A stretch of DNA of 60,761 bases from a virus (Duplodnaviria; Caudoviricetes): positions 1 to 60,761 of the IMG/VR virus record IMGVR_UViG_3300009514_000027; one strand, given 5' to 3'. A model generated the notes under the pieces. That model saw only the letters and a list, made by a program, of their open reading frames with translations. It searched no databases and was not told the origin of the DNA. This document shows, in pieces, positions 528-60,761 of the stretch (within the stretch, counting starts at the first letter, position 1; every line of letters begins with the position of its first letter). Made by a program: the position numbers and the translations under genes.

Positions 528-555
528 CTTAGTAACCAATTAAATATATATATAT

Positions 556-984: not shown

Positions 985-1004
985 GAAAAATAGTTGCCAA
1001 AAAA

Positions 1005-1036: not shown

Positions 1037-1050
1037 TATACTTTTAGCAA

Positions 1051-1278: not shown

Positions 1279-1432
1279 AAAAACATTTTAATTTTGATTT
1301 TGACTTATTAAACATCTGTGGATGTTGTGAGAAAAAGTTTGGTATCTGTACATGTACTGATAAGAAAGAGTTTATAAAAGTACAAAAAGAGATACATGAA
1401 GCACTGGAGTAAAATAGACTTATCAAAATACA

Positions 1433-2331: not shown

Positions 2332-2342
2332 TTATATATAAG

Positions 2343-2702: not shown

Positions 2703-2995
2703 TGATACCAAAGTCTCTAAAAATAGCAGGCCAGACCATTAAGGTTATCTTTAAAAAGGATTTAAAGCTTAGTGGTGAATCTGTATTTGGAGTATGGGAT
2801 TACAATAAGAATAAAATATACCTACAGGCTTCTACAAGAAAAGAACCTATAACACAGGAACAGATAGAGAGTACGTATATTCATGAATTAGTGCATGCTT
2901 GTTTGGAGATTCTAGGAGAGGAGGCTCTATCAAAGAAAGAAACCTTTGTAACAGGGTTTGCTAATTTATTACATCAGGCTTTAAAAAGTGAATAA
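2702..2995 (+). CDS. small zincin-like metallopeptidase
   Basis: TYIHELVHA (HExxH), preceded by G.WDY....IYL and followed by an E-containing helix. Confidence 0.7.
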   Translation: MIPKSLKIAGQTIKVIFKKDLKLSGESVFGVWDYNKNKIYLQASTRKEPITQEQIESTYIHELVHACLEILGEEALSKKETFVTGFANLLHQALKSE

Positions 2996-29540: not shown

Positions 29541-29545
29541 TAATC

Positions 29546-32500: not shown

Positions 32501-33772
32501 CCTACAGAAACAACTATAAACACAGATTTAACAAGTGGAAAACACTTTGCTGCAAAAACTACAGCAGAGTTAGAAACAGAATTGTTTGACGTAGGAAGAG
32601 ACTATACAGGAGTGTCTCTTGAGGGAAATGGACTACAGACAGCTATTACCTTTTTTGCAGAGCCTTTTAATAAAAACTTTGTTGAGGAGTTTGATAATGA
32701 GGTATGGATATCCGAACACAAGATAAACGGGGAAGACGTAGACCAATGGAGGTCATTCTTAGACCTTAATGCTTTGCCAGTAGAAGGTATCTATGGACCT
32801 ATCAATAAGCTACAGGTTCTCAAAGACCAAGTATATTTTATACAGGATAAAGCATTTGGAAGACTTGTAATCAATCCAAGAGTTACAGTACCGTCTACAG
32901 AAGTAACCTTCTTACAGATAGGTACGGGGGGAGTACTTGATGACTATGAATATATCTCTACAGAGTATGGAAGTAAGCACCAGTCTGGTATTACTGCTTC
33001 TGACAGCTCTATATTCTTCTTTGACGTTATAAGAAAGAAGTTCTTACAGTATACACCCTCAAGTGGTATAAGCCCGCTATCAGAGATAAAAGGACTATCT
33101 TCATTCTTTAGTAATAACTTTACTGGGGGAATACAAACTAATGACAACACCATAGATACAAGTATCACTATGGGAGTAACAGCTACGTATGACTATAGAT
33201 TCTACGAAGCACTGTTTACCTTCTTTGATACTAAAGATTCTATAGCTTCTGCCTATACAGTAGCCTATAATGAGTTATTAGGGGCTTTTACTTCGTTCTA
33301 CAGCTTTACACCCTCAATGTATATCAATGATAAGCGACTGATATTATCGCCCAGCACAAGCGTTCCTACGCAGTTTTACAGGCATAACGCAGGGGAGTAT
33401 GGTGTATTCTATGATGGAACTCCTGTAGAATCGTTTATACAGGTATTGGCTAATAAAGACCCTCACGTAACTAAAGCCTTTACAAACATAGACTTTATGT
33501 CTGAGTGTTATGATTCTTCAGATGCAGACGTTATGGACGAGACAGTAGACTCTCTTAACATCTATAACGAGTATCAGAACACAGGTTTTATAACTCTCAC
33601 ACCTCCTAACAATGTACGTAAATTGTTCAGAACGTGGAGGATAGCTGTTCCCAGAGATACTCAAGGAGCAAGGATAAGAGGTCCTTATTGTAATATAGAA
33701 TTAGGGATAAGTAATGCTAATAATCGTAGATTTATTTTACACAATGTTAATACGTACTACCTGTATAGTTAA
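29546..33772 (+). CDS. tail stabilisation/muzzle protein (P22 gp10-like)
   Basis: 1408 aa, F.KGLNQD start, IYWTD..N..R..N, GYMRGEVYRFAIV, FGGDTYV, FTSFYSF.P. Confidence 0.8.
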   Translation: MDGFHTSSFLKGLNQDVAKPRASAESYTDASDIRVVTEKGSSTGSVENILGNKLFFEIPSVSAAYLIENPTFPFQATRPGADDYVDITSWTMTTTVTLTSSAGISVTVQLVNTSTQEGSTSIVDLATIIKDAISNNAILTANGVTVGVTSGSIKVYSNSGLLTSITSIISFTSTPIVANVTIPISVHVPQQDALIVIGWGVLRDTIVLFTTNDTTDDGGYGQIWSLVYDPANLDTYASAVLTLLYNENIGFTTKHLIESPCVCRYETTDIQRIYWTDNHNDVRSFNIADDESMFIDESLLNLEASVSFSKPIVKEVLSGGNLKAAYYQYAYRLKGTNGELTKFSIPSNTVHVFPESETTGLYQEYSLDFAWTTNTHKIVKVEISDIDADYDTIEVVSILLDGLSGTPTVSIIKELSIPENRVVTISHTGSEDNIPLTLEEYSIASFGFSKCKTLASKDNRLIAGNVTGYKFHNKRFNARAYRYRNYNGVIDTYVADGTLTGANAVDPINDTSISTANLDAVNPFNNASIDLIAANQYKYWADGTTLGGEGPNVSYRFITEELQGDKYTEAAYTSAQPVTAPFVDKVRSSKTMSVGGQDHPHVNTWYDFKSPYAEGTVKGYMRGEVYRFAIVLFDTKGKAGFAEWIGDIKFPEHYDSSNPWLEGDYIFATNYDTTTSSRLQQKLYSLGIEFSVKNLPTGISGYSIVRMPRGNADKTRLGTGVLNRFVLYKAHTSSFASNFFDPSFQELSESSFWNIRETDYSETVQNYSAGTDGPLAEKRFYSLDSPDFQLIGSPSFVAGDKIRIVGEIRDLVDNQITYTLPAREVKVQRFTTAATPYSFLEKDIVDSMPIGEGEKVTFQNIKFINSTLYLTGAAPTNTLFYDRSSKSLILHFQPFDLNDYVSGVGKHVKALASYIRPLQEQYGGATQVARSQNSYVYCGHFVRIDDHQDSQYVKVFGGDTYVTMYDYTKYQTSAGLNSQGIGMIFPTETTINTDLTSGKHFAAKTTAELETELFDVGRDYTGVSLEGNGLQTAITFFAEPFNKNFVEEFDNEVWISEHKINGEDVDQWRSFLDLNALPVEGIYGPINKLQVLKDQVYFIQDKAFGRLVINPRVTVPSTEVTFLQIGTGGVLDDYEYISTEYGSKHQSGITASDSSIFFFDVIRKKFLQYTPSSGISPLSEIKGLSSFFSNNFTGGIQTNDNTIDTSITMGVTATYDYRFYEALFTFFDTKDSIASAYTVAYNELLGAFTSFYSFTPSMYINDKRLILSPSTSVPTQFYRHNAGEYGVFYDGTPVESFIQVLANKDPHVTKAFTNIDFMSECYDSSDADVMDETVDSLNIYNEYQNTGFITLTPPNNVRKLFRTWRIAVPRDTQGARIRGPYCNIELGISNANNRRFILHNVNTYYLYS

Positions 33773-36870: not shown

Positions 36871-39800
36871 ATGGCTATAAGCCCATTTTACCAAACACAA
36901 CAGTCTTCACAGTATGTAGACCAGTTTATTCCTTTACCTTTAGACTTCTATCAGGCACAGTTAGAAAGGAAACAGGAATCTTTAGATAAAGCAAAACTTA
37001 TTGCTGAAGACTCTAAAAATAAACTATTTGTACAACCAGGTCCAAGTACTACTCCGCATGCTGATAAAATAAATAGTTACTTTGGTGGAAAATCAAGCGA
37101 GATTGTTAGTGACCTTATAACTGGCAAAGACAGTCCAACTATAACTTTAGGAAAAGTTGCAAATTTACAAAAAGAGTTTCAAACTAACCCTGAAGTACAA
37201 GCGGTGGCTCTGGATAATCAGTTAACTGCAGAGGCAGGTAAACTTGTAAATAGTGAGGGATTTGATAACAATTATCAAGAGTTTTTTAACAAGCAGACGA
37301 GGACATTCAATCAAATACCTGCAGACCAACCCATTTCTAAGAATGATATTTTAACGAGGTATAATTCAGTTGCCCCTCAAAACTATAGTGAGGGTCTTAT
37401 GAAAATGGGAATGAGTGCTATAATAAGCCAAATTGATAATGCAGACCCTACTTATGGAATTCAGTATGTACCAGACCCAGTTACAGGAAAATCAGTTGCT
37501 ACTTACAAAACTACTGATGGTTCTATAAAGTATTTTACAAGAGAGTTAGCAAATGAGAAGTTGTCAGCAAATGACGAGGCATTGACACATCAGTTATATA
37601 ATTCATACGCAGGAGAGAAATGGGGAGCTTACTATAATACTCCTAACGTAAGAGGTACAAAGACAGAAAAAGGGATAGTGCCTCCAAGTGAAAAAGTGTT
37701 TAAGCAAGACATATTAGATGCAATGGAGGGGCAATATTTTGAGAACACTACTAAGGGTAAAGTAGGTGGAAGACCTGTTGGAGGTTCTTCTGGTAAAGGT
37801 ACTCATAGTAAGATAGATTTAAGAGAAGTTCCTATAACTATAAGTACTGTACACACTACCGAATCTCCAGAAGGAAAAGTAAATACAATTTATACTACCC
37901 CTGAAACTCTGCCTCCTATCTATTTTAAACATGATGAAAATGATGATGTAATATATAATGAGGACAAGACAGGACAAAAAGCCAATTATAAAGATTTTGA
38001 TGTTAATATCAAAAACTATATGGCAAACTTTGATACTTATCAGTCTATAAGTGATAATGTGTTAAGTAAACTTCCTGGATTTAGTGGACTGACAACTGCT
38101 GCAAAATCTGAAATTGCCCAACTCTTAGAAAAGAGAGGTAAGAATATTGATGAAAATGGAAACCCTATTATAGCAGAGATACCTACTGATATTCATAGTG
38201 ATTTATATAAGAAGGAAGGCATTAAAGATAAGATTCTTGAAATATACAGGAATGATTTTAAAGACAGACCCATCACTGTAAGTGAAGACCAGATAGAAAG
38301 TGATATTTTGCAGTTAAATAAAGATATTGCTGATGCAGCAGGAGCTATCCGTAAAAAAGCATCTGTGGATTTAGAAACTAAAAATGCTCTTAATGGAACA
38401 GGAGACTATAAGGGACATGGAATTCTTACTCCTGAAGAAAAAGCTTTTGAAAATCCTCTGGGAAAAGAGGCAATTCCAATACGCAAAGAGTATTATAAAA
38501 ATGCTATTAGTGATTTAGTTAATTCTTCAAATATTACAGGAGAAAGTGTTATAGATGCTATAGCTTATTTTTTTAGAGGAAGTATACCTACAATAGGTAA
38601 AGCAAATAAAGAAGATATTATAAAATTAGTAAACAGTACTACCTCATTAAATAATGGCAAATACGTAATAGACGATAAGAAAATCTCTAAAAATTTTGAA
38701 ACTATAGATGAGACCTTTAACAAGATTTTAGGAAACAATGTTTTAACACAAAAAGTATATAGTTACACAGGTTTTAACCCTTCTTATCAAAAAATCTTAC
38801 AGAATAAAAAAGATGCTGTTAGAGAAGATATATTCAATGCACAAACAACTTTACTTGAGAAGAATAAACAAATACCTGTATTTACTTATATAGAAGGAGT
38901 ATATGATCCAAGAGAAGATATAACAACACAGGAGAAAGATTCTCCTATGGCAAAGATTGAAAAGAAATTTAGAGGACTACTTATGCCATACAAAAGAGGG
39001 GTTGTAGATATGGCTGGAAAAACTAATTATGTCTATGATCAGTCCCCAATACTAAACTCAGTTAGGATAACTGACTTACAAGGAAATCTTGTAGATGTTA
39101 CTTCCGGAATAAGAGGAGTATTATCGGATGGTATTATCTTTGACGATGCTGATGGAAGATTTAAAGTTACTGGAAACTTATTAGACTCAGAGGGTAATGT
39201 TATAATGGATGATAAAACCGGCAAACCAAAGGTTGTAAAAACAGATTTCAATTCTAATGACTTTACTGATAATTTAAGAAAATCTTTAGGTGCCCCAGGA
39301 ATGGATAGAATTACAATGGGAAATTCTATAAATTCTATGATGGATGCTTATATGATTTCAGAGAATGGTAAGGCAAAATGGAAAAGCAGTACTTTTATTC
39401 CTGGAGCAGATATGACTCTTATCCGCTCTAATAGTGGAGAAAACACACAATGGAGGGCAGATTTTCATTTAGATGACGCTGTATCCAACCAACTTGTAAA
39501 TGTTGCTCCCTCCGGTTCTGAACAGAAACTAGTAACAATAAAAGATTTACTGGAACTAAATGACGAAGGTAATTATTCAAAACCTAATATTACCACTAAA
39601 ACACAACTTGGTAATGAGGTTTTTAAGTTTTATTCTATAATGAATCAGTTGTCTAAACAAATGTCTACTAAGTTATCAACAGAGAAGAATAATCTTCTTT
39701 CTCCTACAATAGAAAAACAATTAAGTAATATAGGGAGTCTTGCAACTAAGTATAAGAATCTTGGCAACATTACAGACAATGTAGGAACAGGAAAGGGAGT

Positions 39801-51082: not shown

Positions 51083-54000
51083 ATGAAATGTCTAAATATA
51101 AGCCATCCAGAGTTAATACAGTTATCTAAAGATACTAATATTCCAATGTATGAATTGGACTATATAGTGTCTAATTGGATGGATACTACTAAAGAGGATA
51201 GATTTCCTACTAAGGAAGAAGTATTTGAGAACAAGACTAGCATTCCTCAAGTAAACTATCAATTTAAAGGCATTAGACTGGCTGTAAACAACTATAGCAA
51301 GATATTATCTTGGGAGAAGCAAATAAAGGATAAAGATATTCTATGGGACAAAGTTCAGAAACTTGGTATTCCTAAAGAACAAGTAGAGCTTATTAGAAAC
51401 TCTGAAGGAAATACGGTAGGAGAGAAGTTATTAGATTTTATTTTTAAATATAGTTATACTGTTGAGATTAATGTTTCTACCAATAAAGATGCTGCTTCAA
51501 AAGGATTATCAGAATACGATACTGAAAACTTTACAGTAGATTCATGGAATTATCAATCAAGTTTTGATGAGGGATACAATGTAAGATACCATAAACAATT
51601 TACAGATTCTGGGGAGTGGGTTAAAATTTCAGGGGATGAGTTTGACAAAAATAGAGAAATAGCAAAGGAGGAAAAAACAAGAGAAACTCCAACTCAACAT
51701 CATTCTAATCTAACAGTTCCAGGAGGTACTAATTATACAGAGAATGCTATAAGAACAGTTGGAATAGTTAATGTTATATCTGCTGAGGGAGGTTATCACG
51801 ATAATGAATTTAATCAGTCAAGAGGGGATATGGCTGGATGGTTTAGAAGTGATGATAAATATAATAAAGAACAAGGAGATTTAGTAATTTACTATAAGGA
51901 AAATACACCTAAAGATGTTAAAGAACTTTATGATGATGTAAACAACCATAAAATTACCAATAAAGAATTTGCTGATAAAAGAGAAGACTTTTATGTAAAT
52001 AAAGGTATAGATATTAATGAATATCAAACTACAGCAAAAGAAGAATTTAAAACTCGTAGAATACTAGAATTACAATCTTTCTTTCAGAAAGGTAGAGATA
52101 AAGAAAATCTTATTTCAGAATCTAATCAAAAAATTAGTTTAAAAAATATTAATGATGCTATATCAAATCCTGAAAAATATTGGACAGAAGATATGGGTGG
52201 AGGTTATTGGTTGGCAGACTATGAATCTGTTGAACAAGGTTTTGATGTTACAGGAGGTACAAAAGAACAATTTTTAGAAAGACTTAAATCTAAAAAATTA
52301 GAATTAGAACAATCATCTGTTTCAACCGAAAACCAATTCTTACAACTCCTAAATAAAAAAAATAACTGGGTAACATTCTTTGTTAAATCTATCATCCAAG
52401 ATAGTGCTAAGAAAGGGTATGAGAAAGTATTGTTTCCTACTGGTGATACTGCTAGTAAGGTAGAAGGACATGAGACTTTAGAAGAGTTTAAGAAGCAGAA
52501 AGAAGATAGGATTAAAGAACTTGAGAAGGCAAAACTACTTGAAGATAATAAGGAATATAAAATAGAAAGGGTTGAAGAAGGACTTGGAAAGGGTAAATAC
52601 GAGCTTACCATTATTGGAAAAGCAGGGTCTCTTCTTTTTAATACAAGAGAAGAGGCTTTAATAGAGGTCAAACAAAGAAAAAGAGATATTGATATTGAAA
52701 TAACTCAACTTAAACAAGAACTTGAAAGAGTAGAAACAGAAGGATTTGGTGCTTTAAAACCTATATTTAAATTTTACAATATTGATATAAGAAATATTTT
52801 TGTAAAACAATACGGAGAATGGATAAATACAGGAGTATTAAAAAATAAATACGGTAAAGAATGGAAAGAAAAAGATTTAACTTGGCAAGAATTACAAGAC
52901 CATGTAAAAAGTGATACTTTAAAATTTATTACTGATGAATATGGTAATACTTGGATTGAAGTAACTATTACTCTTGAAAAAGCTACACAACCTATTCTTT
53001 TACAACTTACTCCAGAAGAAGAAAAACCAGTAGACGAGAAGTTAGATAAAATAATTAAGAACCTTCTTGAATCTTTAGGATTCTCTGTACAAGAATTTGA
53101 CAGGATAAGAACAGAACGAGGATTAGATGCTGTTGCCTCAGTAGATATTCTAAATAAGATAGTTAAGGTTGCCAGAGGAAAGGCAAAGATAGACACTTTA
53201 GCAGAAGAGGCTTCTCACGTAGTTTTTAGAATGCTTGGTAAAGACAATCCTATGTATCAGAGAGCAATGTCTTTGATAGATAAGACTGACCTCTACAGTC
53301 GTGTAAAGCAAGAATACTGGGAAACTTACGAAGGTAATGAGGAGAAGGTAAAAGAAGAGGCAGTAGGTAAGATGATTTCCCGTTATGTAGTCAATCAACA
53401 TCTTGAGAATGAGCGTAACAAAACTATTATAGGACAGATTATCAACACTATTAAGATGATACTTAATAGGGTGATAAATATGTTTAAGTCTGTAAATGAG
53501 GTTTCTTTACAAGAAGTTATAGACAATGCTTATGGCACTCTTGCAGAAAGAATGTTATCAGGCAAACTTGATGAATTATCTTTTGAGAATCTAAAGGATG
53601 ATGTATTCTATCAATTAGGAGACTATGAGTTATGGAAAGACTTTCCTATGAGGACTTCTAATATTGAGAAGCTTGAAACAGGAGAGAAAGGAATAACTAT
53701 TCGTCCTAACCGTTTTGAAACAGGGTATTACAAGTTTGGTAAGAACTACTACCTTGTTACTAATCTATACGATAAGAAGGTAAACATAGAAGATACTACA
53801 GATAAAGCAGACCTTAGAAAGAGATTTATAAAAGACGAGGAGATAAAGAAGGAGCATATTAAGGATTTCTTTGAAGGAAAGAACCTTATGTATGTCTATC
53901 AGATTGCTAAGGTAGATGCAGGTATTCAGGCAGAATTGGAGAAGAAAGAGGTAAAGAAGAAGGCAAAGAAACAACCTCTTAGAAAGGAAACAAGAGAAGA

Positions 54001-56938
54001 TATACTTACAGGTATTCCTAACATAGACGTATTTATAATGCGTTGGGATAATGATGTTAGGAGACTTAGGAGTAAGATTGTGCCTAACGATAAAGAACAT
54101 AATGAGAAGATACGACATCAGATATTTGCTATAGAATCTCGTATAAAGAAGCTAAAAGAGGTAAGAAAGCGTAATCTAGTAAAAGAGACTGCTGAAAGGC
54201 AAGTGGCGGATATAAAGAGAAAAATGGCTACCTATGACACTCTTGACTATAAAGGAAAGGTAGATTTCTTTATTAGAGCTTCTGAATACCTTGAAGGATG
54301 GACAGATATCTCTACACTTCTTGAAGTAGAGGAAGGAGAGGATGCTCTTAGTACACAGATAAATAATATTCAGGGAGAGGTAAAATACTTACTTGGGAAG
54401 TTAAAGATTTTAAAGTTTAACTTTGTTAAGCAATATATGGGCAAGGGAGAACTTAAAGAGTCAGATGTTCTTGGACCTTTGAATAAAACTCCTTATTGGG
54501 AGTCTGTGCTACTTGACATATCTGTAAGTTCTGTTCCTGCTGTACAAAGACTATTTTCTTTCTTTGACGATGCAAGGGCAAATGCTCTTGACAAGCATAG
54601 AGTATATAATGAAGAGGTAAAGGAGATGTATAAGGCAACACAGGAGTATATAAAGTCTTCAGGAATGTCTATGAATGATATTCTTAATCTCTTTACCCAA
54701 AGAAAGGAAAATGGTGTGTATACAAAGAACCATACTGACAAGTATAAGCAAGAATATTACGATGAACTAAATAGTAAGACAGGTAAGGTAAAGAGTAAAT
54801 GGAAGACAGACAATACTACAAGAACTGTAGACTATGTAGCTTACGAAAAAGCTAGAAAAGAAGTAGAAAGAGAGTTTAAAGACGACAACGGAGAATGGTT
54901 TGAACAGACTTCTTATCTTAACTGGGTAAGCGATTATAGTCCTGATAAGTTTGGAAATCATAGAAATGAGTTTGCTGAGTTTACTCCCATAGATAAATGG
55001 ATAGACCCAAGATGGAAGGATATAAAGGAAGGAAAGTATAAGGGAACTCATGTAGAAAAGCTGTACGACTTTTATCTTCAAAAACTGAAAGAGAGGAAGG
55101 CTAAGATTCCTAAGCATCCCAATCTTCCCTCTAACTATATGCCTGAAATTACACAATCTATCTTTGAAGCTTATACTAAAGATGGTATGTCAGGAATGTT
55201 TAGATTTGGAGGAACATCTCTTGGAGAGAAACTTAAAGAGTCTTTTGGAGCAGAAATAGAGTCTGAGGTAGACTTTGCGGTAAGAGACCTTGAAACTAAT
55301 CAGGCAGAGAAGAGAGTGCCTATCTATATGATGGCAAACCTATTAAACCCAGAAGAGAAGTCAAGAGATATCTTTAAAATATTAGATATATTTGGAGCTG
55401 TTTCTTACACCTATGAGTATAAAACTGCGATAGAAGTTCCTGTAAACATAATGAGGAAACTTCTAAAAGAGGCTACAGAGAAAGAAATGATAGGAGGTGT
55501 AGCAAAAAAAGGTATTTATGGAGAGGTTCTTAAAATAATTGAGGGTAATAAGAATACCTTTGAACAGGTAGATTACTACATAGACTCTATGCTGTATGAC
55601 ATGAAGAAGGAAAAACCTAGTATTCTGTTCAAAAGTAAGACGCTGTCCTCTGAGGATAAGGAAAGAGGGCTTAGCCTAACAAGTACAGGAGATACTCTTA
55701 TAGCTCATACTCAGTTAATGGGAATGGGACTAAACGTATTTGCCTCTGCTACTAACACTTTATTCGGAACACTTAGTAACTTTGTACATGCTGCAGGAAA
55801 CGAAGACTATACAACTGCTCACGCAATGAAAGCTTTAAGTATTGCCCTTACTACTACAGCGTTTACAAGTGAAAATGCAAAGAAGGTTAGCAGGCTTATG
55901 GAGTTTTTTCAGATAGAGTATCTGAATCTGGACACTAAGTATGGAGATGCGTGGTATAAGAAGAATATGACTGACCATGCTTTTATCCTTATGAAGAAGA
56001 CCGAGAAGTTTAACCAGATGCAGATGATGATTGCCAAAATGCTGAATACAGAAGTTATAGACAAGAATGGTAAGAAAACTAGTCTTTGGGATGCTTTTGA
56101 GGTAAAAGACGACAAACTATTCTGGGACGATGCAAAATATGGGGAGAATCAGTATGGAGACGAGACAGAAGGTAAACAAACCTTTCGTAGGAGACTGAAA
56201 CAGATTATAGCTAACCAACACGGTGCTTATGATACTGCCTTTCCTATGTTGGCTAAAAAGCATCTGGCAGGGAGAATGCTGACAGTATTTAGAACATGGT
56301 TGCCAAGGGGAGCATATACCCACATTGCTGGAGAAAGGGAAGTAGAAGGAAAGATGGAAAAAGGAAGGTTTATATCCCTTAAAGACTATTATAAGGATAA
56401 AGGGGTCATTAAAGCCTCCTACGGGCTTATCTGGGGCGTGGTAAGGAAGATGATTAACTTTGGCTTTTTTAAGACTGCAGCGTTCTCTAATGAAGGATTA
56501 TCAGATATAGACGCTGCTAACATGAGAAAGTTGTCTGCAGAGATATCTTTTGACCTTGCTATACTACTAATGGGATTGATGCTAAAGGGTATAAAGGTAG
56601 GAGACGATGACGAGGAACAGAAAGCACTTATTAAATTCCTTATTAATCAGTCTGTAAGGGTAGATTCAGAACTTGCCTTTTGGTGGAGTCCTGCTGCCCA
56701 AGCTAATATAATAAGGAACATAGCTCCTCCTCAGAGGACTATTTTACAATTTAAGGAGTTGTGGGACACAGGAACAGATGCTATTATGGGAGATGTGTAC
56801 TATACAAGAGGTTCTCACAAAGGAAGGTCTAAATTCTGGAGAAAGTTTTGGAATAACATTCCTATAGTAACACAAATTCAGAAAGTTGCAGAGCTTCCAG
56901 GTTCTACAACACACTCAGGAAGGACTAGGTATTACTAA
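51083..56938 (+). CDS. large polyvalent cargo protein
   Basis: 1951 aa. GGTNYTE...RRILELQS...KGYEKVLFP domain, degenerate zincin EEASH, ASCH-like segment, helical C-terminal region. Confidence 0.75.
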   Translation: MKCLNISHPELIQLSKDTNIPMYELDYIVSNWMDTTKEDRFPTKEEVFENKTSIPQVNYQFKGIRLAVNNYSKILSWEKQIKDKDILWDKVQKLGIPKEQVELIRNSEGNTVGEKLLDFIFKYSYTVEINVSTNKDAASKGLSEYDTENFTVDSWNYQSSFDEGYNVRYHKQFTDSGEWVKISGDEFDKNREIAKEEKTRETPTQHHSNLTVPGGTNYTENAIRTVGIVNVISAEGGYHDNEFNQSRGDMAGWFRSDDKYNKEQGDLVIYYKENTPKDVKELYDDVNNHKITNKEFADKREDFYVNKGIDINEYQTTAKEEFKTRRILELQSFFQKGRDKENLISESNQKISLKNINDAISNPEKYWTEDMGGGYWLADYESVEQGFDVTGGTKEQFLERLKSKKLELEQSSVSTENQFLQLLNKKNNWVTFFVKSIIQDSAKKGYEKVLFPTGDTASKVEGHETLEEFKKQKEDRIKELEKAKLLEDNKEYKIERVEEGLGKGKYELTIIGKAGSLLFNTREEALIEVKQRKRDIDIEITQLKQELERVETEGFGALKPIFKFYNIDIRNIFVKQYGEWINTGVLKNKYGKEWKEKDLTWQELQDHVKSDTLKFITDEYGNTWIEVTITLEKATQPILLQLTPEEEKPVDEKLDKIIKNLLESLGFSVQEFDRIRTERGLDAVASVDILNKIVKVARGKAKIDTLAEEASHVVFRMLGKDNPMYQRAMSLIDKTDLYSRVKQEYWETYEGNEEKVKEEAVGKMISRYVVNQHLENERNKTIIGQIINTIKMILNRVINMFKSVNEVSLQEVIDNAYGTLAERMLSGKLDELSFENLKDDVFYQLGDYELWKDFPMRTSNIEKLETGEKGITIRPNRFETGYYKFGKNYYLVTNLYDKKVNIEDTTDKADLRKRFIKDEEIKKEHIKDFFEGKNLMYVYQIAKVDAGIQAELEKKEVKKKAKKQPLRKETREDILTGIPNIDVFIMRWDNDVRRLRSKIVPNDKEHNEKIRHQIFAIESRIKKLKEVRKRNLVKETAERQVADIKRKMATYDTLDYKGKVDFFIRASEYLEGWTDISTLLEVEEGEDALSTQINNIQGEVKYLLGKLKILKFNFVKQYMGKGELKESDVLGPLNKTPYWESVLLDISVSSVPAVQRLFSFFDDARANALDKHRVYNEEVKEMYKATQEYIKSSGMSMNDILNLFTQRKENGVYTKNHTDKYKQEYYDELNSKTGKVKSKWKTDNTTRTVDYVAYEKARKEVEREFKDDNGEWFEQTSYLNWVSDYSPDKFGNHRNEFAEFTPIDKWIDPRWKDIKEGKYKGTHVEKLYDFYLQKLKERKAKIPKHPNLPSNYMPEITQSIFEAYTKDGMSGMFRFGGTSLGEKLKESFGAEIESEVDFAVRDLETNQAEKRVPIYMMANLLNPEEKSRDIFKILDIFGAVSYTYEYKTAIEVPVNIMRKLLKEATEKEMIGGVAKKGIYGEVLKIIEGNKNTFEQVDYYIDSMLYDMKKEKPSILFKSKTLSSEDKERGLSLTSTGDTLIAHTQLMGMGLNVFASATNTLFGTLSNFVHAAGNEDYTTAHAMKALSIALTTTAFTSENAKKVSRLMEFFQIEYLNLDTKYGDAWYKKNMTDHAFILMKKTEKFNQMQMMIAKMLNTEVIDKNGKKTSLWDAFEVKDDKLFWDDAKYGENQYGDETEGKQTFRRRLKQIIANQHGAYDTAFPMLAKKHLAGRMLTVFRTWLPRGAYTHIAGEREVEGKMEKGRFISLKDYYKDKGVIKASYGLIWGVVRKMINFGFFKTAAFSNEGLSDIDAANMRKLSAEISFDLAILLMGLMLKGIKVGDDDEEQKALIKFLINQSVRVDSELAFWWSPAAQANIIRNIAPPQRTILQFKELWDTGTDAIMGDVYYTRGSHKGRSKFWRKFWNNIPIVTQIQKVAELPGSTTHSGRTRYY

Positions 56939-56960
56939 CTTGTAAGATTATAAGAAATAA

Positions 56961-56992
56961 TTAGGTAAACATTGTAATTATACCTATCTTTG
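56961..56992 (+). promoter_or_regulatory. Bacteroidota-type promoter with no protein gene downstream
   Basis: TTAG (56961-56964) + 20 nt + TATCTTTG (56985-56992). Confidence 0.7.
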
Positions 56993-56999
56993 CACTTTA

Positions 57000-57103
57000 A
57001 ATTTAATAGACTGGCTATCTACCAGCTTATATAATATTTACGAAGCCTATTGTAAGTAGTTATTTGAGGGGTAGATACTCAAATAATGAACACAATGGGT
57101 TTC
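57000..57103 (+). ncRNA. candidate structured non-coding RNA (core; may extend to about 57390)
   Basis: Hairpin 57011-57025. Long hairpin 57042-57103 with 12-bp and 9-bp stems, two G-U pairs and an AGUA/GAA internal loop. The two loops are complementary. Promoter immediately upstream. Confidence 0.6.
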
Positions 57104-57349
57104 TGATTTTATACACTACTCTTTTTCCCACAGAAAGATGCAAACGGAGAACTTTAGCAACTACGGCTATTGGAACAGGTACTTTTTTAGTGAGTTTATT
57201 TTTCCAGGGGGGACTTTTTCTTTCTTTACTTATGCTTCTTCTATAGAACTTGTTGCTTTCGTTTCTTTCTTTTAATCTACTAATTTCCTTTCAAACTTCT
57301 AAAAATATACAGACTTTTAGAATCTAAAAACCCTTGGCTACTATTCGTT

Positions 57350-57390
57350 AGAAGGGAAAGGTAGACCGAAGCCTACCAACCCTTTTCTTT
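57350..57390. terminator. hairpin at convergence of + and - transcription units, probable terminator
   Basis: GGTAG (57360-57364)/CTACC (57373-57377) inner stem, AAGGG/CCCTT outer stem, T-rich tail, abuts the stop at 57391. Confidence 0.55.
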
Positions 57391-57702
57391 CTATGTATCT
57401 TCATCACTGACTTCTCCCCATGTATCTACATATGCATTCTGAGAAGTTTCAGATAATTCTTGTAATTGTTGTTCTAAAGTAGAGATTGTTATACAAGCGT
57501 CTTCAAATTCTCTTTGTAAGGCTTTATATTCTTTTGTAGCCCTCTGTCCTTTTATTAAGCCATTCTTATAACCGTAATTATATCCTTTGGTTAAAGAATC
57601 AAAGATAGTATCTTGTGTAAGAGGTTCTCCCTCAAAGTGGTCTTTATATATTTTTTTAAACCCATCTTGACGAAGGGTTGGATTGAACTTATTCTTATTC
57701 AT
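57391..57702 (-). CDS. hypothetical protein
   Basis: 103 aa, overlaps the upstream minus-strand ORF. Confidence 0.65.
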   Translation of the reverse strand: MNKNKFNPTLRQDGFKKIYKDHFEGEPLTQDTIFDSLTKGYNYGYKNGLIKGQRATKEYKALQREFEDACITISTLEQQLQELSETSQNAYVDTWGEVSDEDT

Positions 57703-58018
57703 TGTCTTTCATTATTTCTTTTATTGGGAAAGAGTATTTTAAACCCCACATTAAATCTATTTCTCTAAAAAACTTTTTTGCTTTTTCTTTTGTATACTTA
57801 GGAGTTGTTTTTTTTGTAAGTATTTCTATAACTCCATTTCTCCAATTTCTCCAATCATCAGATGTTTTAAAAGTCATTACCTGATACCAAGGAGTCTTTT
57901 CTTCCCACTCTTTAACATCCTCATAGCATACATTATAAGGCTTTAATTGCAAATTTATAATAGCTTTTAATAAATCTTCACTATCCTTTTTATACTTTTT
58001 TACTTTCTTTTTTGCCAT
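57695..58018 (-). CDS. hypothetical protein
   Basis: 107 aa, W-rich, A-rich start region. Confidence 0.7.
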   Translation of the reverse strand: MAKKKVKKYKKDSEDLLKAIINLQLKPYNVCYEDVKEWEEKTPWYQVMTFKTSDDWRNWRNGVIEILTKKTTPKYTKEKAKKFFREIDLMWGLKYSFPIKEIMKDNE

Positions 58019-58029
58019 AGTTTTTATGT

Positions 58030-58224
58030 TTAAAAATCATTTTTCTTATGTAGTTTTTTAATTATCTTTACATGGGGCATTGAAAATTCAGATAGATAAA
58101 ACTTCTCTGCATAGTCATTATTACCTCCGTCTGTCCATCTAATTATATAAAATTCTCCTTTCTCTGTATCGAAATATACCTGATTATCTCTATTAGGTAT
58201 CATTCCTTCTGGTAAGTTTTTCAT
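58030..58224 (-). CDS. hypothetical protein
   Basis: 64 aa, A-rich start region. Confidence 0.55.
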   Translation of the reverse strand: MKNLPEGMIPNRDNQVYFDTEKGEFYIIRWTDGGNNDYAEKFYLSEFSMPHVKIIKKLHKKNDF

Positions 58225-58308
58225 TTTATTTTATATAGTTGAAAGTGCAAAAGTTAATAAGTATTCGGCACTATGTGTATAGCGTGTATTTACAAGTTAG
58301 GCGTAATT

Positions 58309-58740
58309 TTAGCGACCAGCCAACTGTTCAACATTGGAAGCGAAAATTATACCCTTATTGAATTGGTTTAAATCCATGTGGTTTCTATCACACATTTTAC
58401 CATTCTTACATCTTTCCACCATCACACCATGATTTTCTTTACACGGTATTATTCTAATTTCATCATATTCTAAATGTTCATATCCGCTTTCATGCGTTAT
58501 TTGAATTATTTTACCTTTAGAATAAACCGATACGAACTTACCTTTGCCAGTTGTGGGTATCATAGTTCCATTAAAACCGTCCATGTTAAAATTATGTATT
58601 TTAGAATAATACAATCTCTTTACATCACGTTTAAACCAACCAATCCAATATTTCCGCATCGACCATTTATACTTGAAGTTAAAAAAACTACGCCTAACAG
58701 CAAGTATATTCAATTGCGGTTTTTGTGCTTTATTTTCCAT
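58309..58740 (-). CDS. cassette-encoded hypothetical protein
   Basis: 143 aa. The N-terminus KPQLNILAVRRS is encoded by the left arm of the attC-like site. Confidence 0.7.
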   Translation of the reverse strand: MENKAQKPQLNILAVRRSFFNFKYKWSMRKYWIGWFKRDVKRLYYSKIHNFNMDGFNGTMIPTTGKGKFVSVYSKGKIIQITHESGYEHLEYDEIRIIPCKENHGVMVERCKNGKMCDRNHMDLNQFNKGIIFASNVEQLAGR

Positions 58741-58824
58741 TTATTTAAGTTATTTAAGTTATTACTAATTTGAAAGTATTATTCGTTTAAGTCCGCAACT
58801 AAATATACTTGCGAACCGTTATAA
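58692..58824 (+). repeat. complete attC-like site (133 bp)
   Basis: GCCTAAC-AGCAAGTATATTCAATTGCGG ... CCGCAACTAAATATACTTGC-GAACC-GTTATAA. Confidence 0.8.
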
Positions 58825-58842
58825 GCAAAGTTTAAACCCCGC

Positions 58843-59046
58843 CTACGCACGGAGTTCTTTTGCAGATGGCTCAAAGTAGCACATAGTCAAAGCAACTAAA
58901 TGTTTTCTACCTGTTTTTTCGGTTAGTTCCTTTGCCTTCTTCTTTGCTTCATCCTCTGTTCTAAACCAATCCTCGTATTGATGAGGATAGTCAGTTAATA
59001 CGAGCCATCTTTGCTCTTTTTTTGGTTCTGCTTTTGTCTTTGCCAT
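58843..59046 (-). CDS. cassette-encoded hypothetical protein
   Basis: 67 aa, F.TEDEAKKKAKEL helix motif. Confidence 0.6.
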   Translation of the reverse strand: MAKTKAEPKKEQRWLVLTDYPHQYEDWFRTEDEAKKKAKELTEKTGRKHLVALTMCYFEPSAKELRA

Positions 59047-59113
59047 TTTATTTGTTTTTACAGTTAATAATGCCCTCGCAAAAGGGGTTTTACTATCTTA
59101 TAGCCCCGATACG

Positions 59114-59392
59114 TTACCTGCCGTGCCCCGACAAATCAATCGGACTATCCCAATCTAACACCTCGATATTTTTATCAAGCACGGAAAGTTTGCCATTGCT
59201 ACTTAGCATTATCAGACATTGAGATATTCCCCTTTGCATCCTTTCGTTTGTTATTACCTGTTTAATCGTTCCATCGCTAAACTTTCCTAATAGCAGGAAA
59301 TTCTTTAATGATGGCATGGCAGGTAGCAAGGGCTTTACAAAACCCGCAACAGTGGTAGTTTTGGCTTTTGTGTTTTTAATTTTCTTCTTCAT
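59114..59392 (-). CDS. cassette-encoded hypothetical protein
   Basis: 92 aa. The stop codon is the TTA of the GTTA box and the start lies inside the attC-like loop. Confidence 0.65.
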   Translation of the reverse strand: MKKKIKNTKAKTTTVAGFVKPLLPAMPSLKNFLLLGKFSDGTIKQVITNERMQRGISQCLIMLSSNGKLSVLDKNIEVLDWDSPIDLSGHGR

Positions 59393-59449
59393 AGTTTTAC
59401 AGTTTAGTGTTATTTAATGTGGGCTTCGCCAAGCCCGATAATGTTATGT
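59321..59449 (+). repeat. attC-like site (129 bp) with mutated R'' (AGC instead of AAC)
   Basis: AGGTAGC-AAGGGCTTTACAAAACCCGC ... GTGGGCTTCGCCAAGCCC-GATAAT-GTTATGT. Confidence 0.7.
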
Positions 59450-59455
59450 GCAAGG

Positions 59456-59728
59456 CTACCATTCTCCTCCGTATTGGGCTGCATCCGCTTCTGCCTGTCC
59501 TTGTGCATTTTGTTCTGCTTCATATCTTGCTTGGTCGGCTTGGGCTTCTTGTTCTGCCTGTTCTTTTGCCATTTGCTCCTCTGCCCATTGTTGGTAGTGT
59601 CCATCGCTTCCATGATTAATGTCGCCCATACACATTGAGCAGATACTTTGTCCGTCAGGCACGGATGAGCCACATTGTGAACATTGTCTCATTTTGTTTT
59701 TCAATTTAACTTTAGTTTCGTTTTCCAT
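59456..59728 (-). CDS. small zinc-ribbon protein
   Basis: CSQC...CSMC followed by a Q/A/E-rich helical tail. Confidence 0.65.
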   Translation of the reverse strand: MENETKVKLKNKMRQCSQCGSSVPDGQSICSMCMGDINHGSDGHYQQWAEEQMAKEQAEQEAQADQARYEAEQNAQGQAEADAAQYGGEW

Positions 59729-59774
59729 AGTGTATTTAGTTTAATTTTTTCGTACCACCCCAAGCCAAGAGCCG

Positions 59775-60587
59775 TTAGCGTATTTGTTGTCCTAAAATAT
59801 TATAAATTTCTATATATTGAAAATTATCTGCTTTCTTACATTTACAATAAGTAATCTTTGAATATGCAAAAGCTCCATCATAATCCACTTGTTTAAGCCT
59901 AAAATAGGCTGAAATACAGTCTACGGAGTAGTCATACCACCTTTGGGTAGAACTCGTGCCAGAACCGCTTATTTTAACTAAATTTGCCCATTCTTCTATA
60001 TTTACGCTTTTTTGGACTATAAAATAGTCGTTATTGACTTCTGATGCTGTACTCCATTGTAGTACTTGTCTTGCACAATTAAAAAATAACAGTTCTATTG
60101 GTAAAGGAGTAGTATTTATGAAATAGGGGCAAAAAGTTACAAATCCATTACATCCTCCTCCTCCCCAAGCCCTCATTCTATAACAAAGAGTATAGTTTGC
60201 CCCTGTTGTTAGTCCTGAATATGATAATCCTGTACTGATAAAAGTACAGGAGTTGTCATAAAGATTATAAGGTCCAAAGGATTTATTATTACAGTTAGTA
60301 GAATTTCCTGCGTCTGCAAGTATATCTGTTCCTGCCGCAGCCAGTGATAGAAGTCCTGTTGAAGCTAATCTTAGACCTGTGTCCGCATCTGATTCGAATG
60401 CATAAGATGGAACTGCAACTGAACCTGTGCCTGCTTGAACTGTATCACCGGCGTTGGTAGGTGATAGTATTGTACCTGTTCTTACCCACTCAACGTTATA
60501 GGTAGAACCACTTCCGGCTTCTGTCAGGTCATCCCAGCTAGAACCATTGTAGAAGTATATATTAGTTCCATCGCTGAATATGTCCAA
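59775..60587 (-). CDS. chimeric ORF: fibre-like N-part plus Bacteroidota LPIEL domain with truncated T9SS-like tail
   Basis: PSYAFESDADTGL (fibre-type), then PLPIELL.F...WSTASEVNNDYF...YFRLKQVDYDG...IEIYNILGQ. The stop coincides with the GTTA box. Confidence 0.5.
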   Translation of the reverse strand: MDIFSDGTNIYFYNGSSWDDLTEAGSGSTYNVEWVRTGTILSPTNAGDTVQAGTGSVAVPSYAFESDADTGLRLASTGLLSLAAAGTDILADAGNSTNCNNKSFGPYNLYDNSCTFISTGLSYSGLTTGANYTLCYRMRAWGGGGCNGFVTFCPYFINTTPLPIELLFFNCARQVLQWSTASEVNNDYFIVQKSVNIEEWANLVKISGSGTSSTQRWYDYSVDCISAYFRLKQVDYDGAFAYSKITYCKCKKADNFQYIEIYNILGQQIR

Positions 60588-60708
60588 CGGCAGGCCTTTA
60601 CAGTCCTATTATTCTGAACTGGAATTGGAAAGAGTGCGGTCTCTTAACCAGTACGATATGAAACTCTACCGGTTCGTTAAAAGACGCCTGCAGAATACAG
60701 CAGAGTGA
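60580..60708 (+). pseudogene. C-terminal fragment resembling a sulfotransferase-family protein
   Basis: My translation is MSNGRPLQSYYSELELERVRSLNQYDMKLYRFVKRRLQNTAE*. The N..D..LY.F pattern resembles sulfotransferase C-termini. Higher GC than the phage. Confidence 0.35.
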
Positions 60709-60761
60709 ATGATGTAAAGATATGGTTTCGGGTAACTCTGGAAAAAAGAAACTTTTAAAAG

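Follow-up and report, generated by a model that had tools for sequence, protein, structure and literature searches.

The question raised by this locus is whether a run of small genes near one end of a phage contig, separated by recurring GTTA boxes, represents a set of mobile gene cassettes and, if so, by what kind of recombination system these cassettes are moved. The DNA analyzed here (the window) is a contig of 60,761 nt (60.7 kb), estimated to be 62% complete. Its predicted capsid and portal proteins place the phage among the crAss-like phages (Crassvirales); the portal protein matched phrog_6547 at 6e-142, the major head protein matched phrog_11589 at 5e-97, and the capsid protein was 35-39% identical to those of crAss-like phages over 99% of its length. 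Overall, our data make it very likely that positions 58296-59777 are a site-specific recombination cassette array of a phage-borne, integron-like system. As the 60.7 kb hold no recombinase (no match to PF00589, in agreement with the preliminary description of this DNA) and complete sites were found in only two of five units, we refer to the array as CALIN-like.

The five GTTA boxes of the preliminary description were located as claimed at 58296, 58818, 59113, 59443 and 59774, and they delimit units of 522, 295, 330 and 331 bp, each with one small ORF (143, 67, 92 and 90 aa, respectively) on the minus strand of the window (i.e., the gene strand). None of the eight small window ORFs gave a match above cut-offs to Pfam or PHROGs, and the roles of the cargo genes are thus far putative. 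The first unit, cassette 1 (58296..58821, minus strand), has a TAAC box at either end when read on the gene strand and is a complete mobile unit. Its cargo, a 143-aa ORF (58309..58740, minus strand), belongs to no Pfam or PHROG family and has no match in the ESM Atlas; relatives of this ORF show 73-92% amino acid identity.

Cassette 1 is associated with hairpin recombination site 1 (58689..58826, minus strand), which comprises, in plus-strand coordinates, an inner box (58689-58698), an arm (58700-58719), a loop (58720-58792), a second arm (58793-58812), a 5-nt spacer (58813-58817) and the GTTA box (58818-58821). The two arms pair over 20 nt at 90% (18/20) and are 73 nt apart; the start codon of the 143-aa ORF lies inside the loop, and the first approx. 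20 codons of this ORF are encoded by the inner arm and inner box. Moreover, positions 58296-58310 pair with 58684-58698 (15 nt, 93%), a stretch that includes the 10/10 match reported previously, i.e., the inner box of unit 1, TACGCCTAAC at 58689, is complementary at 10/10 positions to the end of its own cassette. The second complete site is hairpin recombination site 2 (59318..59451, minus strand) of cassette 3 (59113..59446, minus strand), where the inner box, GGCAGGTAGC at 59318, agrees with the cassette's own end at 9/10 positions and has its core mutated to TAGC; the TAA stop codon of the 92-aa ORF of this cassette (59114-59392) forms part of the TAAC box. At these two sites the inner box agrees with the cassette's own end at 6/6 positions each, as compared to 2/6 and 3/6 for the box adjacent to it. 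This own-end complementarity had been put forward as the decisive feature of the region; it holds for units 1 and 3, the two for which it was named, and not for the other three of the five units, as no inner box was found in units 2, 4 and 5 when up to 2 mismatches were allowed.

We also assessed how far such features could be expected by chance, i.e., whether the region might contain only fortuitous inverted repeats, as may occur in AT-rich intergenic sequence, or the usual terminators and promoters between small phage genes. A strict composite signature (TAAC, a 12-nt stem with at least 10/12 pairs, GTTA and an own-end box with at least 9/10 matches) had 1 match in the window; when the whole window was dinucleotide-shuffled 100 times, 5 of the shuffles had at least one match. 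The gene-strand DNA fold of site 1 (-14.3 kcal/mol, z -1.08) was equaled in stability by 26 of 200 shuffles, the long hairpin of site 2 differs from the minimum-energy DNA fold, and single-strand DNA folding was overall no better than that of shuffled sequences (z -0.2 to -1.1); the sites thus do not stand out by their folding energy. An Rfam scan of 56900-60761 (E up to 10) gave two chance snoRNA-like matches only. While the folding energies and the matches in shuffled windows would fit a chance origin, neither promoter-like sites (14 vs 12.6 expected) nor terminator-like sites (3 vs 2.2 expected) were enriched, and the reading is already contradicted by the covariance model matches, the covariation and the exact common breakpoints in at least 8 contexts described below, which leave it practically no probability.

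A covariance model (R1) was trained on 30 sites from other phages, with the window sequence excluded. R1 matched the window at three boundaries named in the preliminary description, i.e., at full length at site 1 (90.5 bits, E 2.2e-15) and site 2 (39.9 bits, E 1e-5) and marginally at a third (18.4 bits, E 0.13), where the E-values are rough due to a short calibration. The next best match anywhere in the 60.7 kb had an E-value of 0.65, and both significant matches as well as the marginal one were on the minus strand. The two inverted repeats claimed earlier are thus both matched on the gene strand by a model built from other phages, and this evidence is much stronger than the chance test of the composite signature.

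Across the 30-site alignment, 16 of 22 pairs showed compensatory change. Paired cells amounted to 89.6% as compared to 62.3% in shuffles (none of 500 shuffles reached 89.6%), and the covariation score was 0.646 as compared to 0.166 for shuffled data and 0.11-0.17 with slid partners. As the training sites were picked by a stem filter, the proximal 12-bp pairing is partly built in; the distal 5-bp helix, which played no part in site selection, also covaries. Mean column identity was 53%, with 13 invariant columns; the sites (60-200 nt long) have approx. 10 invariant bases in common and share an invariant TAACG...TGTTA with 5-nt vs 1-2-nt spacers. On the gene strand, G.T/T.G pairs outnumbered A.C/C.A pairs (29 vs 6), in addition to one invariant G.T pair in 30/30 sites. 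Sense-strand structure that tolerates G.U, in a hairpin whose loop often contains a start codon, would also be expected of RNA elements (e.g., for processing or translation control around the start codon), with the modular exchange arising at conserved motifs through ordinary recombination, either illegitimate or based on short homology. We regard this explanation as quite improbable, as it leaves unexplained why the inner box matches its own cassette end up to approx. 1 kb away rather than the box with which it is paired, why an attI-like junction adjoins a recombinase gene and why intact units are reordered at 100% identity; moreover, the invariant bases (approx. 10) are too few for homologous exchange.

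The remaining units are less complete. Unit 2 (58818..59116, minus strand; 67-aa ORF at 58843-59046) has kept its left half-site and gave no R1 match; as it has no inner box (at most 2 mismatches), it is probably either decayed or of a "gene inside the loop" type. This half-site (59083-59116) has counterparts in five other arrays (L005, L012, L034, L035 and L036), with 94% identity over 34 nt and a match that stops exactly at GTTA; in L005, the equivalent arm pairs across a whole gene. Unit 4 (59443..59777, minus strand) has a degenerate site, to which the marginal R1 match (59623-59782) corresponds, and carries a 90-aa zinc-ribbon-like ORF (59456-59728; Zn_Ribbon_1 at E 0.001, below the cut-off). 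Complete sites were therefore not present in units 2 and 4, neither of which has an inner box or a significant R1 match. Upstream of the array, a 270-aa ORF (59775..60587, minus strand) has its TAA stop codon within the TAAC box at 59774-59777 and may represent an additional, larger unit that is truncated where the contig stops; this unit showed no inner box as far as the window end, and the ORF belongs to no Pfam or PHROG family. A putative likeness of the C-terminus of this ORF to a Bacteroidota secretion-sorting domain was dropped, as there was no Pfam match at E 0.1.

Comparisons with other phages revealed exchange at the box boundaries. Between the window and a complete phage genome (G001), cassette 1 is the sole common stretch (83.6% identity over 530 nt), ending at 58296 and 58821. 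Of 19 metagenome loci, 8 showed the same ends to within 2 nt, in unrelated sequence surroundings, and one of the further loci with unit 1 is a complete 76-kb phage without the window's capsid gene. The proposed breakpoints are thus borne out in other phages, where both cassette 1 and the unit 2 half-site end at the boxes. Conversely, loci L008 and L005 have both flanks in common (91% and 98.8%) and wholly different arrays (4957 vs 1706 bp), and L008 shares four cassettes with L006 or L009 at 97.7-100% identity in changed order. Taken together, these comparative data support the earlier proposal that genes were gained by attC-type recombination at G|TT through a tyrosine recombinase absent from the window.

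Cassette 1 is 83-91% identical to its relatives and never identical, and thus gives no indication that it moved recently in the window phage itself. A sediment metagenome run (X1) contained 6% of the window's words and yielded two 151-nt contigs (at 58580-58730 and 58709-58822), one of which diverges from the window at 58822; no joints were seen in these two contigs, nor any excision product or junction of a cassette circle. A blastn search with 57000-60761 as query found no match among 50,697 phage records. No close relatives of the window phage were detected in viral or metagenome contigs when the last 399 aa of the 1951-aa protein were used as query, the 92-aa and 90-aa ORFs had no relatives in viral contigs, and the window's giant proteins matched none of the related loci analyzed.

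The preliminary description had proposed a search for an IntI-like integrase. An array-linked enzyme does exist elsewhere; it is a short Xer-like tyrosine recombinase of 277 aa whose gene adjoins arrays in uncultured phages. One-strand arrays of hairpin sites were found in 24 of 34 related viral loci, with 83 sites on the gene strand and 11 on the opposite strand of the 34 recombinase loci, as compared to 2 in shuffles. All R1 matches (82/82) were on the strand of the recombinase gene and upstream of it, and orientation was likewise the same for 32/32 in a second set; R1 gave no match at three loci (L022, L024 and L032) in which the recombinase gene is preceded by 1 kb or more of sequence. For 54 site pairs that had been defined solely by their stem, the inner box matched its own cassette end at a mean of 4.72/6 positions, as compared to 2.78/6 for the adjacent box. 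An attI-like junction, TAAC|TAYTATATGTA, at which the arrays end, is located 50-65 nt before the recombinase start codon in 17 of 18 loci, the recombinases of which are merely 57-100% identical to each other. The complete G001 genome encodes a single tyrosine recombinase. Nine of 20 larger cassette ORFs scanned represent DNA methyltransferases or a DNA-glycosyltransferase, and, among the eight small window ORFs, the 143-aa ORF alone matches the recombinase loci. The best cultured matches to the recombinase (31-32%) are in the Polaribacter phages Freya and Leef, which have runs of small ORFs before an integrase; these phages were dropped as members, as neither the site scan nor R1 finds sites in them.

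The Xer-like recombinase reached 164.5 bits, in two stretches, against TIGR02249 (cut-off 265) and 86.4 against NF011946 (cut-off 435), and its alignment to IntI4 (2a3v) places 29 residues opposite 72 at the insertion, with approx. 43 residues missing. Judged by these alignments, the enzyme is Xer-like without the IntI insertion and is not an IntI. The array's last TAAC box (58296..58299, minus strand) is followed by T rather than G (TAAC|TTGTAAATAC), which indicates a junction with non-cassette DNA; where two hairpin sites adjoin, the sequence is TAAC|G in all 30 aligned sites, whereas TAAC|T or TAAC|A is seen at the attI-like junction beside the recombinase. This last box may weakly resemble the attI-like site, with TGTAAA alone in common.

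It is tempting to consider these hairpins canonical integron attC sites, with cassettes moved by a host IntI and the Xer-like gene being merely a lysogeny integrase. Unit 1 has the classical core pair GTTAGGC / GCCTAAC, and R1 matches the Polaribacter phage P12002L at five gene-strand places (E 2e-4 to 6e-3) beside methyltransferase genes. The accessible part of one report describes phage CALINs detected by IntegronFinder and HattCI, of which 5/6 phage attC sites were recombined by IntI1, one P12002L site being included (PMC9892861). Nevertheless, the conserved junction fixed 50-65 nt before the Xer-like gene, the placement of every site on the strand of that gene, the TAACG...TGTTA ends with 5-nt vs 1-2-nt spacers rather than RYYYAAC/GTTRRRY with symmetric spacers, and a gene strand opposite to that of classical cassettes leave this explanation unlikely. 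The P12002L sites found by R1 bound methyltransferase and Mom-like genes, which does not imply that they are identical to the sites of that report.

Single-strand transposable units of the IS200/IS605 type, which would insert on the 3' side of TAAC and be mobilized by a Y1 HUH transposase, were considered as well. A tetranucleotide boundary, one-strand polarity and a subterminal hairpin are features of this family that the units resemble. Y1_Tnp (PF01797) was absent from 5/5 phage records, including the complete G001 (the control was positive in 6 of 14 known genomes), there is a single hairpin per unit rather than one at each end, and own-end complementarity and an attI-like site next to a tyrosine recombinase suit an integron scheme; movement of this kind is therefore highly improbable.

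Under the preferred reading, an integron-like cassette array, a cassette on the gene strand (the window's minus strand) starts just past TAAC with G and approx. 4 unpaired bases, followed by a 17-bp imperfect arm, a loop of approx. 10-90 nt that usually holds the ORF start codon, the pairing arm, 1-2 bases, the inner box (TGTTA plus 5-6 cassette-specific bases) and the remaining gene; the cassette ends with the complement of the specific bases of the inner box plus TAAC. When the gene strand becomes single-stranded, box and arms would fold into a hairpin mimicking a double-stranded recombinase site, and this folded single-stranded DNA would be the substrate of a tyrosine recombinase, which may cut at TAAC, the exact bond being putative. 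Recombination between two neighboring sites would release a circle, and recombination of the circle's site with the attI-like site or with another hairpin site would lead to insertion. The probable catalyst in related phages is the 277-aa Xer-like recombinase encoded 50-65 nt past the attI-like site. As the window has no recombinase, the enzyme would have to act in trans and could be encoded in the 38% of the genome that the contig lacks, be supplied by a second phage infecting the same cell, or possibly be a host IntI.

Integrons are regarded as bacterial, and recently also archaeal, devices defined by IntI, and, to our knowledge, stray integron parts are all that has been reported from phages to date. 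The data presented here point to a simpler and distinct recombinase tied to hairpin-bounded cassettes within phage genomes, with the same cassette occurring in unrelated phages and identical cassettes reordered in related ones. We tend to favor the broader view that uncultured Bacteroidota phages, some of them crAss-like, possess a self-contained integron analogue (a minimal Xer-like recombinase devoid of the I2 insertion of IntI, an attI-like site and gene-strand hairpins) that shuffles a bank of accessory and counter-defence genes across unrelated families, that the window is a recombinase-less outpost of it, and that the system represents either an independent invention of single-strand hairpin recombination or a relative of the pre-IntI ancestor. 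If the enzyme is confirmed, the system would provide a mechanism behind the "ORFan" accessory regions seen in Bacteroidota phages (crAss-like ones among them) and a route by which anti-restriction methyltransferases spread among phages; it would also serve as a natural test of the need for the I2 helix of IntI in recombination of single-strand hairpins. As P12002L is cultured and has such sites, the idea can be tested at the bench. CALINs have been described in phages before (Qi et al. 2023, PMC9892861), and the earlier suggestion of novelty therefore stands only in that nothing was found in print for crAss-like phages, phage attC clusters being described in the accessible part of that report. 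The phage-borne platform (recombinase, attI-like site and arrays) appears not to be in print, as it was not found in the accessible parts of the literature consulted (PMC9892861, PMC11054128, PMC8138268); subscription journals and supplements may hold more.

Compared to bacterial integrons, as described in the accessible part of Cury et al. (2016, PMC4889954), the phage arrays are alike in their single-gene units, imperfect hairpins ending in AAC/GTT, chimeric sites in which the inner box agrees with the opposite end of its own cassette, a recombinase past an attI-type junction and transcribed away from the array, a coding strand that is the "bottom" strand of the sites, and replacement and reordering of cassettes. 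They differ in the recombinase (Xer-like, 277 aa and approx. 43 residues short at the IntI4-specific insertion), in spacers of 5 nt vs 1-2 nt, in the invariant TAACG/TGTTA and in being carried by phages; moreover, the ORFs are on the strand opposite to the classical one (bottom-equivalent, not top-strand upstream of attC), and the site is thus upstream of the gene or overlaps its 5' end. With regard to the features that define an integron, an IntI-type integrase was found neither in the window nor as the recombinase of related arrays; TAAC/GTTA-ended hairpins with covarying arms were seen, with no Rfam match and a different spacer geometry; the inner box is complementary to its own cassette; an attI site beside the integrase occurs in relatives only and not as such in the window; gain, loss and reordering at G|TT were observed in other phages; and promoterless top-strand ORFs upstream of attC, read from Pc, were not found. 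"Integron-like" is thus the right term, and "integron" is not demonstrated. At least two one-strand sites without an integrase, which characterize a CALIN (Cury et al. 2016), were found with the phage-derived R1 and not with IntegronFinder's model. In this respect, the window is like the phage CALINs of PMC9892861, the accessible part of which reports isolated clusters identified by canonical attC models and IntI1 assays and describes no cognate phage recombinase, attI-like site, inter-phage cassette reordering or crAss-like phage. P12002L, a published CALIN-bearing Polaribacter phage, is also without a recombinase.

Among Xer-dependent systems, dif modules have double-stranded XerC/XerD sites of 28 bp on either side, which alternate in orientation, and depend on host XerCD. 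The modules of Acinetobacter plasmids, as far as the accessible parts of two reports describe them, are alike in that accessory modules are shuffled at short Xer sites (PMC13141974, PMC6449649). In contrast, the phage sites are long hairpins in one orientation (82/82) with own-end complementarity and a dedicated recombinase gene, and short double-stranded sites in alternating orientation were not found. PeSLs of T4-type phages are conserved promoter-terminator sequences thought to work via homologous recombination. These cassettes are alike in that small ORFs flanked by stem-loops are shuffled in hyperplastic regions, as the accessible parts of PMC2839356 and PMC4122927 describe. The phage stems studied here differ in that they covary, have approx. 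10 invariant bases and are attached to a tyrosine recombinase and an attI-like site; a conserved promoter plus stem-loop for homologous exchange was not found. In CTX-type filamentous phages, a folded single-stranded attP is recombined by XerCD at the host dif. There, the whole phage genome integrates at dif, with no cassette array within the phage, whereas the likeness to the arrays described here lies in a Xer-family enzyme acting on a one-strand hairpin that mimics a duplex and has an unpaired central region.

The window, a linear IMG/VR virus record of 60,761 bp with an estimated completeness of 62%, comes from a crAss-like phage, as its portal matches phrog_6547 (6e-142), its major head protein matches phrog_11589 (5e-97), and its capsid protein shows 35-39% identity over 99% of its length to Bacteroides, Flavobacterium and Cellulophaga crAss-like phages. 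Four giant ORFs in a row (1087, 1337, 2309 and 1951 aa; 36871-56938) close the structural block, and giant consecutive ORFs in this position are typical for crAss-like phages. None of the four had a match in any locus fetched, and no close relatives of the phage were found. Following the giant plus-strand gene at 51083-56938 are eight small minus-strand ORFs (103, 107, 64, 143, 67, 92, 90 and 270 aa). At approx. 60588 the character of the sequence shifts; the 270-aa ORF begins there with TTG and has no frame upstream, and a 42-aa plus-strand ORF (60580-60708) spans the junction. A scar left by recombination, a gene cut short or an artefact of assembly close to the contig end could each account for the stretch from this junction to the end (60588-60761).

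The last five of the small ORFs are divided by GTTA boxes at 58296, 58818, 59113, 59443 and 59774, exactly where the preliminary description had placed them; on the gene strand, i.e., the minus strand of the window, these boxes read TAAC, and the stretches between them are designated units (or cassettes) 1 to 4. A repeat search also recovered the inverted repeats described earlier, i.e., 58700-58719 with 58793-58812 (20 nt, 90%), which are the arms of hairpin site 1, and 58296-58310 with 58684-58698 (15 nt, 93%) in unit 1. A covariance model of the hairpin sites (R1), trained without any window sequence and without the copy of cassette 1 in phage record G001, matched 58689-58826 (90.5 bits, E = 2.2e-15), 59318-59451 (39.9 bits, E = 1e-5) and 59623-59782 (18.4 bits, E = 0.13); these E-values are approximate, as calibration was short. 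Elsewhere in the whole window, searched with filters off, the top match of R1 reached only E = 0.65.

Cassette 1 is intact and cassette 3 is fairly intact, with its inner core mutated to TAGC. Units 2 and 4, on the other hand, have no inner box (i.e., TGTTA plus cassette-specific bases after the hairpin) and no significant R1 site, and the last window box is followed by three small ORFs, none of which matches the recombinase loci, instead of a recombinase. The window array is thus recombinase-less and partly decayed (two of four units), and it is CALIN-like, i.e., like a cluster of attC sites lacking an integrase, in the sense used in the available text of Cury et al. 2016 (PMC4889954). A cassette type that carries its whole gene in the loop seems to be represented, in decayed form, by unit 2; positions 59083-59116 show 94% identity to a half-site of five other loci, and the match ends precisely at GTTA. 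The 270-aa ORF terminates in a TAAC box, and any site of its own would lie beyond or at the contig end. The array's last box reads TAAC|T, like attI-type junctions, as compared to TAAC|G between hairpin sites.

The preliminary description had proposed that genes are exchanged with breakpoints at the boxes, and the distribution of unit 1 bears this out. A relative of the 143-aa ORF is encoded by G001, a phage record of 76,304 bp that has terminal repeats and is rated 100% complete (loci L002, L008 and L058). At the DNA level only 58296-58821 is common to both phages (83.6% over 530 nt), which is unit 1 from GTTA to GTTA. No homologue of the window capsid protein was detectable in G001, and apart from unit 1 the two phages are thus unrelated. 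Scanning metagenomes with the 143-aa ORF yielded 19 loci, among which L055 and L056 represent one context and L058 is G001 itself. In eight of the 19, the match to the window spans 58820-58823 to 58295-58296 and both flanks differ, while three share the upstream box end alone; in six, the match begins within the unit (58691-58764) and stops near 58281-58297. In the remaining two (L062, 957-1096, and L063, 1047-1112), the common part is limited to the hairpin site plus the initial 20 codons (window 58822-58682), which are fused to another gene body. The hairpin site and the N-terminal leader it encodes seem to form a module that can be separated from the cargo. One 151-nt contig from a sediment-metagenome run tracks the window up to 58822 and then departs; this run yielded just two 151-nt contigs, and circle junctions were not observed. 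R1 found 32 matches in 12 of 18 cassette 1 metagenome loci, all on the gene strand. At L052 (75-575 and flanks), the same approx. 34-nt stretch, ending GAGGCATAAC, both precedes and closes the cassette, such that two consecutive cassettes have their 3' ends in common.

In G001, an array of small genes is followed directly, on the same strand, by the gene for a 277-aa tyrosine recombinase (P0001), the only tyrosine recombinase in this record. Relatives of P0001 (57-100% identity) were found in 34 viral loci and in small contigs of MAGs from Chitinophagales and other Bacteroidota. In 18 loci, the 130 nt that lead up to the start codon of the recombinase gene were aligned; the sequences are unrelated as far as TAAC (CAAC in one locus), after which TAYTATATGTA is conserved at 50-65 nt from the ATG, although the recombinases share just 57-100% identity. 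A homologue of the capsid protein (phrog_11589) occurs in two recombinase-bearing records, i.e., G002 (1e-30) and G004 (5.6e-15, a weak match). As G004 also carries a full array, the recombinase platform is probably present in crAss-like phages too.

Comparisons among these loci show, at the level of sequence, cassette turnover. L008 and L005 are 91% identical in the left flank and 98.8% identical on the recombinase side, and between these lie unrelated cassettes (4957 and 1706 bp, respectively). Between L008 and L006 or L009, four cassettes that are 97.7-100% identical have been reordered (A...B-C-D vs. D-C-A...B). The ends of the exchanged blocks in the comparisons of L005, L006, L008 and L009 fall on TAAC boxes.

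The feature previously regarded as decisive, i.e., that an inner box is complementary to the end of its own cassette and not to the box it now adjoins, proved to be general. For 54 unique pairs of consecutive sites, identified from their stems only, agreement between the six cassette-specific bases of an inner box and the end of its own cassette averaged 4.72/6 (at least 5/6 in 37 pairs) as compared to 2.78/6 with the adjacent box (at least 5/6 in 5 pairs). Window units 1 and 3 agree (6/6 vs. 2/6 and 6/6 vs. 3/6, respectively). Such a pattern would be left behind if a cassette were excised as a circle and re-inserted at a box. It is sensible only if box and inner box pair with each other, which would imply a folded single strand as the substrate.

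On the gene strand, a unit consists of the end of the previous cassette (yyyyyTAAC|), G plus approx. 4 unpaired bases, an arm, a loop, the second arm, 1-2 bases, the inner box (GTTA followed by zzzzz), the remaining gene, the complement of zzzzz and TAAC|. When the 34 recombinase loci (345 kb) were scanned for the combination of TAAC, a 12-nt stem and GTTA, the recombinase strand yielded 83 sites (73 with an own-end box), as compared to 11 on the opposite strand and 2 in mononucleotide shuffles. For 30 non-identical sites aligned with MAFFT, RNAalifold predicted 22 pairs, and compensatory changes occur in 16 of these. Paired cells accounted for 89.6% of this alignment as compared to 62.3% after shuffling (a level reached by 0/500 shuffles), and the covariation score was 0.646 as compared to 0.166 for shuffled data and 0.11-0.17 with slid partners; pairing in the proximal 12 bp is partly built in, as sites were pre-filtered on it, and the distal 5-bp helix, which was unfiltered, likewise covaries. 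Among non-Watson-Crick pairs, G.T/T.G (29, with one G.T invariant) exceed A.C/C.A (6), which argues that the gene-sense strand is the one that folds.

Applied to the 34 recombinase loci and two Polaribacter phage loci, R1 gave 82 matches at E <=0.001 (30 of them the training sites themselves). Every match shares the strand of the recombinase gene and lies upstream of it, and 24 of the 34 loci have at least one. Loci with no matches mostly have little or no upstream sequence. L022, L024 and L032 gave none despite 1-8 kb upstream, and may use a second site type; their junction is a variant (TAAC-ATACAATATGT, or CAAC). In L005, the last cassette before the recombinase (4097-4546) has arms at approx. 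4106-4129 and 4495-4517 that surround a whole 98-aa gene; only 11 nt separate its inner box from the cassette end, and its left arm is common to window unit 2.

The best NCBIfam matches of P0001 all fall under their cut-offs, i.e., XerA_Arch ("site-specific tyrosine recombinase/integron integrase"; 198 bits, cut-off 220), XerD (175 bits) and the integron integrase TIGR02249 (164.5 bits over two stretches, cut-off 265). The closest solved structures are XerC-like 4a8e and XerA 5hxy. Against IntI4 (2a3v), the alignment breaks where residues 173-201 of P0001 (29 aa) lie opposite IntI4 176-247 (72 aa), which is the place of the IntI-specific insertion; this insertion is described as essential for integron function in the available text of Smyshlyaev et al. 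2021 (PMC8138268). Because it lacks the insertion and scores below the TIGR02249 cut-off, P0001 is ruled out as an IntI by defining features. No Y1 transposase was found in the five phage records searched.

A host IntI may be the mobiliser of the cassettes in the window; in the available text of Qi et al. 2023 (PMC9892861), where 10,705 phage genomes were screened with IntegronFinder and HattCI and 3 integrons, 1 In0 and 17 CALINs were found, IntI1 recombined five of six tested phage attC sites, one of them from P12002L, a virulent Polaribacter phage whose CALIN encodes two methyltransferases. In P12002L (NC_028924), R1 produced five gene-strand matches (E = 2e-4 to 6e-3) and one further plus-strand match (14497-14631, E = 0.0059), and no P0001-like gene was found. 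As this phage carries a published CALIN, the hairpin site family has probably been glimpsed in print as "attC". Chained TAAC boxes, with weak to moderate R1 matches, occur in minus-strand stretches 29240-30061, 32217-32695 and 37266-39250, and such chained boxes enclose the gp54 methyltransferase, the Mom-like gp53 and the gp35 methyltransferase. P12002L, cultured and virulent, could be usable as a bench system. Polaribacter phage Freya_10 (L038) has a run of small ORFs upstream of its integrase (1-4962), and neither the site scan nor R1 detected hairpin sites of the present family there; the Freya_1 to Freya_10 records are 43,978-48,920 bp long, with integrase positions from 71 to 4168.

Family searches assigned no family to the window's cassette ORFs. 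Among the 20 longest of 76 ORFs called in the relatives' arrays were three C5 cytosine, two N6_N4 and three Dam-type methyltransferases and one TET-associated glycosyltransferase, and this cargo points to a putative counter-defence function. The arrays rich in DNA modification genes are those of L014, L016, L021, L023 and L026.

The available text of a study of epsilon crAss-like phages (PMC11054128) states that IntegronFinder analysis returned nothing, and in our literature search no account turned up of a platform carried by phages that brings its own recombinase, of cassettes changing order from one phage to another, or of arrays of this kind in crAss-like phages. Overall, the initial observation is confirmed, and its interpretation as attC-type cassette gain and shuffling is supported in substance. 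Judged from sequence, the feature is most aptly classed as a phage-borne cassette system, integron-like in kind and with a candidate Xer-like recombinase, of which the window holds a recombinase-less array.

Like bacterial integrons, the phage system has single-gene cassettes, hairpin sites with AAC/GTT ends that are chimeric, an attI-type junction with the recombinase beyond it and transcribed away from the array, a recombinase coding strand that is the "bottom" strand of the sites, and cassettes that are replaced and reordered. Unlike in integrons, the enzyme belongs to a clade without the IntI insertion, and the cassette ORFs are found on the opposite strand, with the site upstream of the ORF or across its 5' end; the loop often contains the start codon, and the first approx. 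20 residues are encoded by the inner arm and box. The phage sites also differ in their asymmetric spacers (5 nt on one side of the hairpin and 1-2 nt on the other) and in their invariant TAACG/TGTTA, and some phage cassettes, e.g., the last one of L005, hold a whole gene inside the loop.
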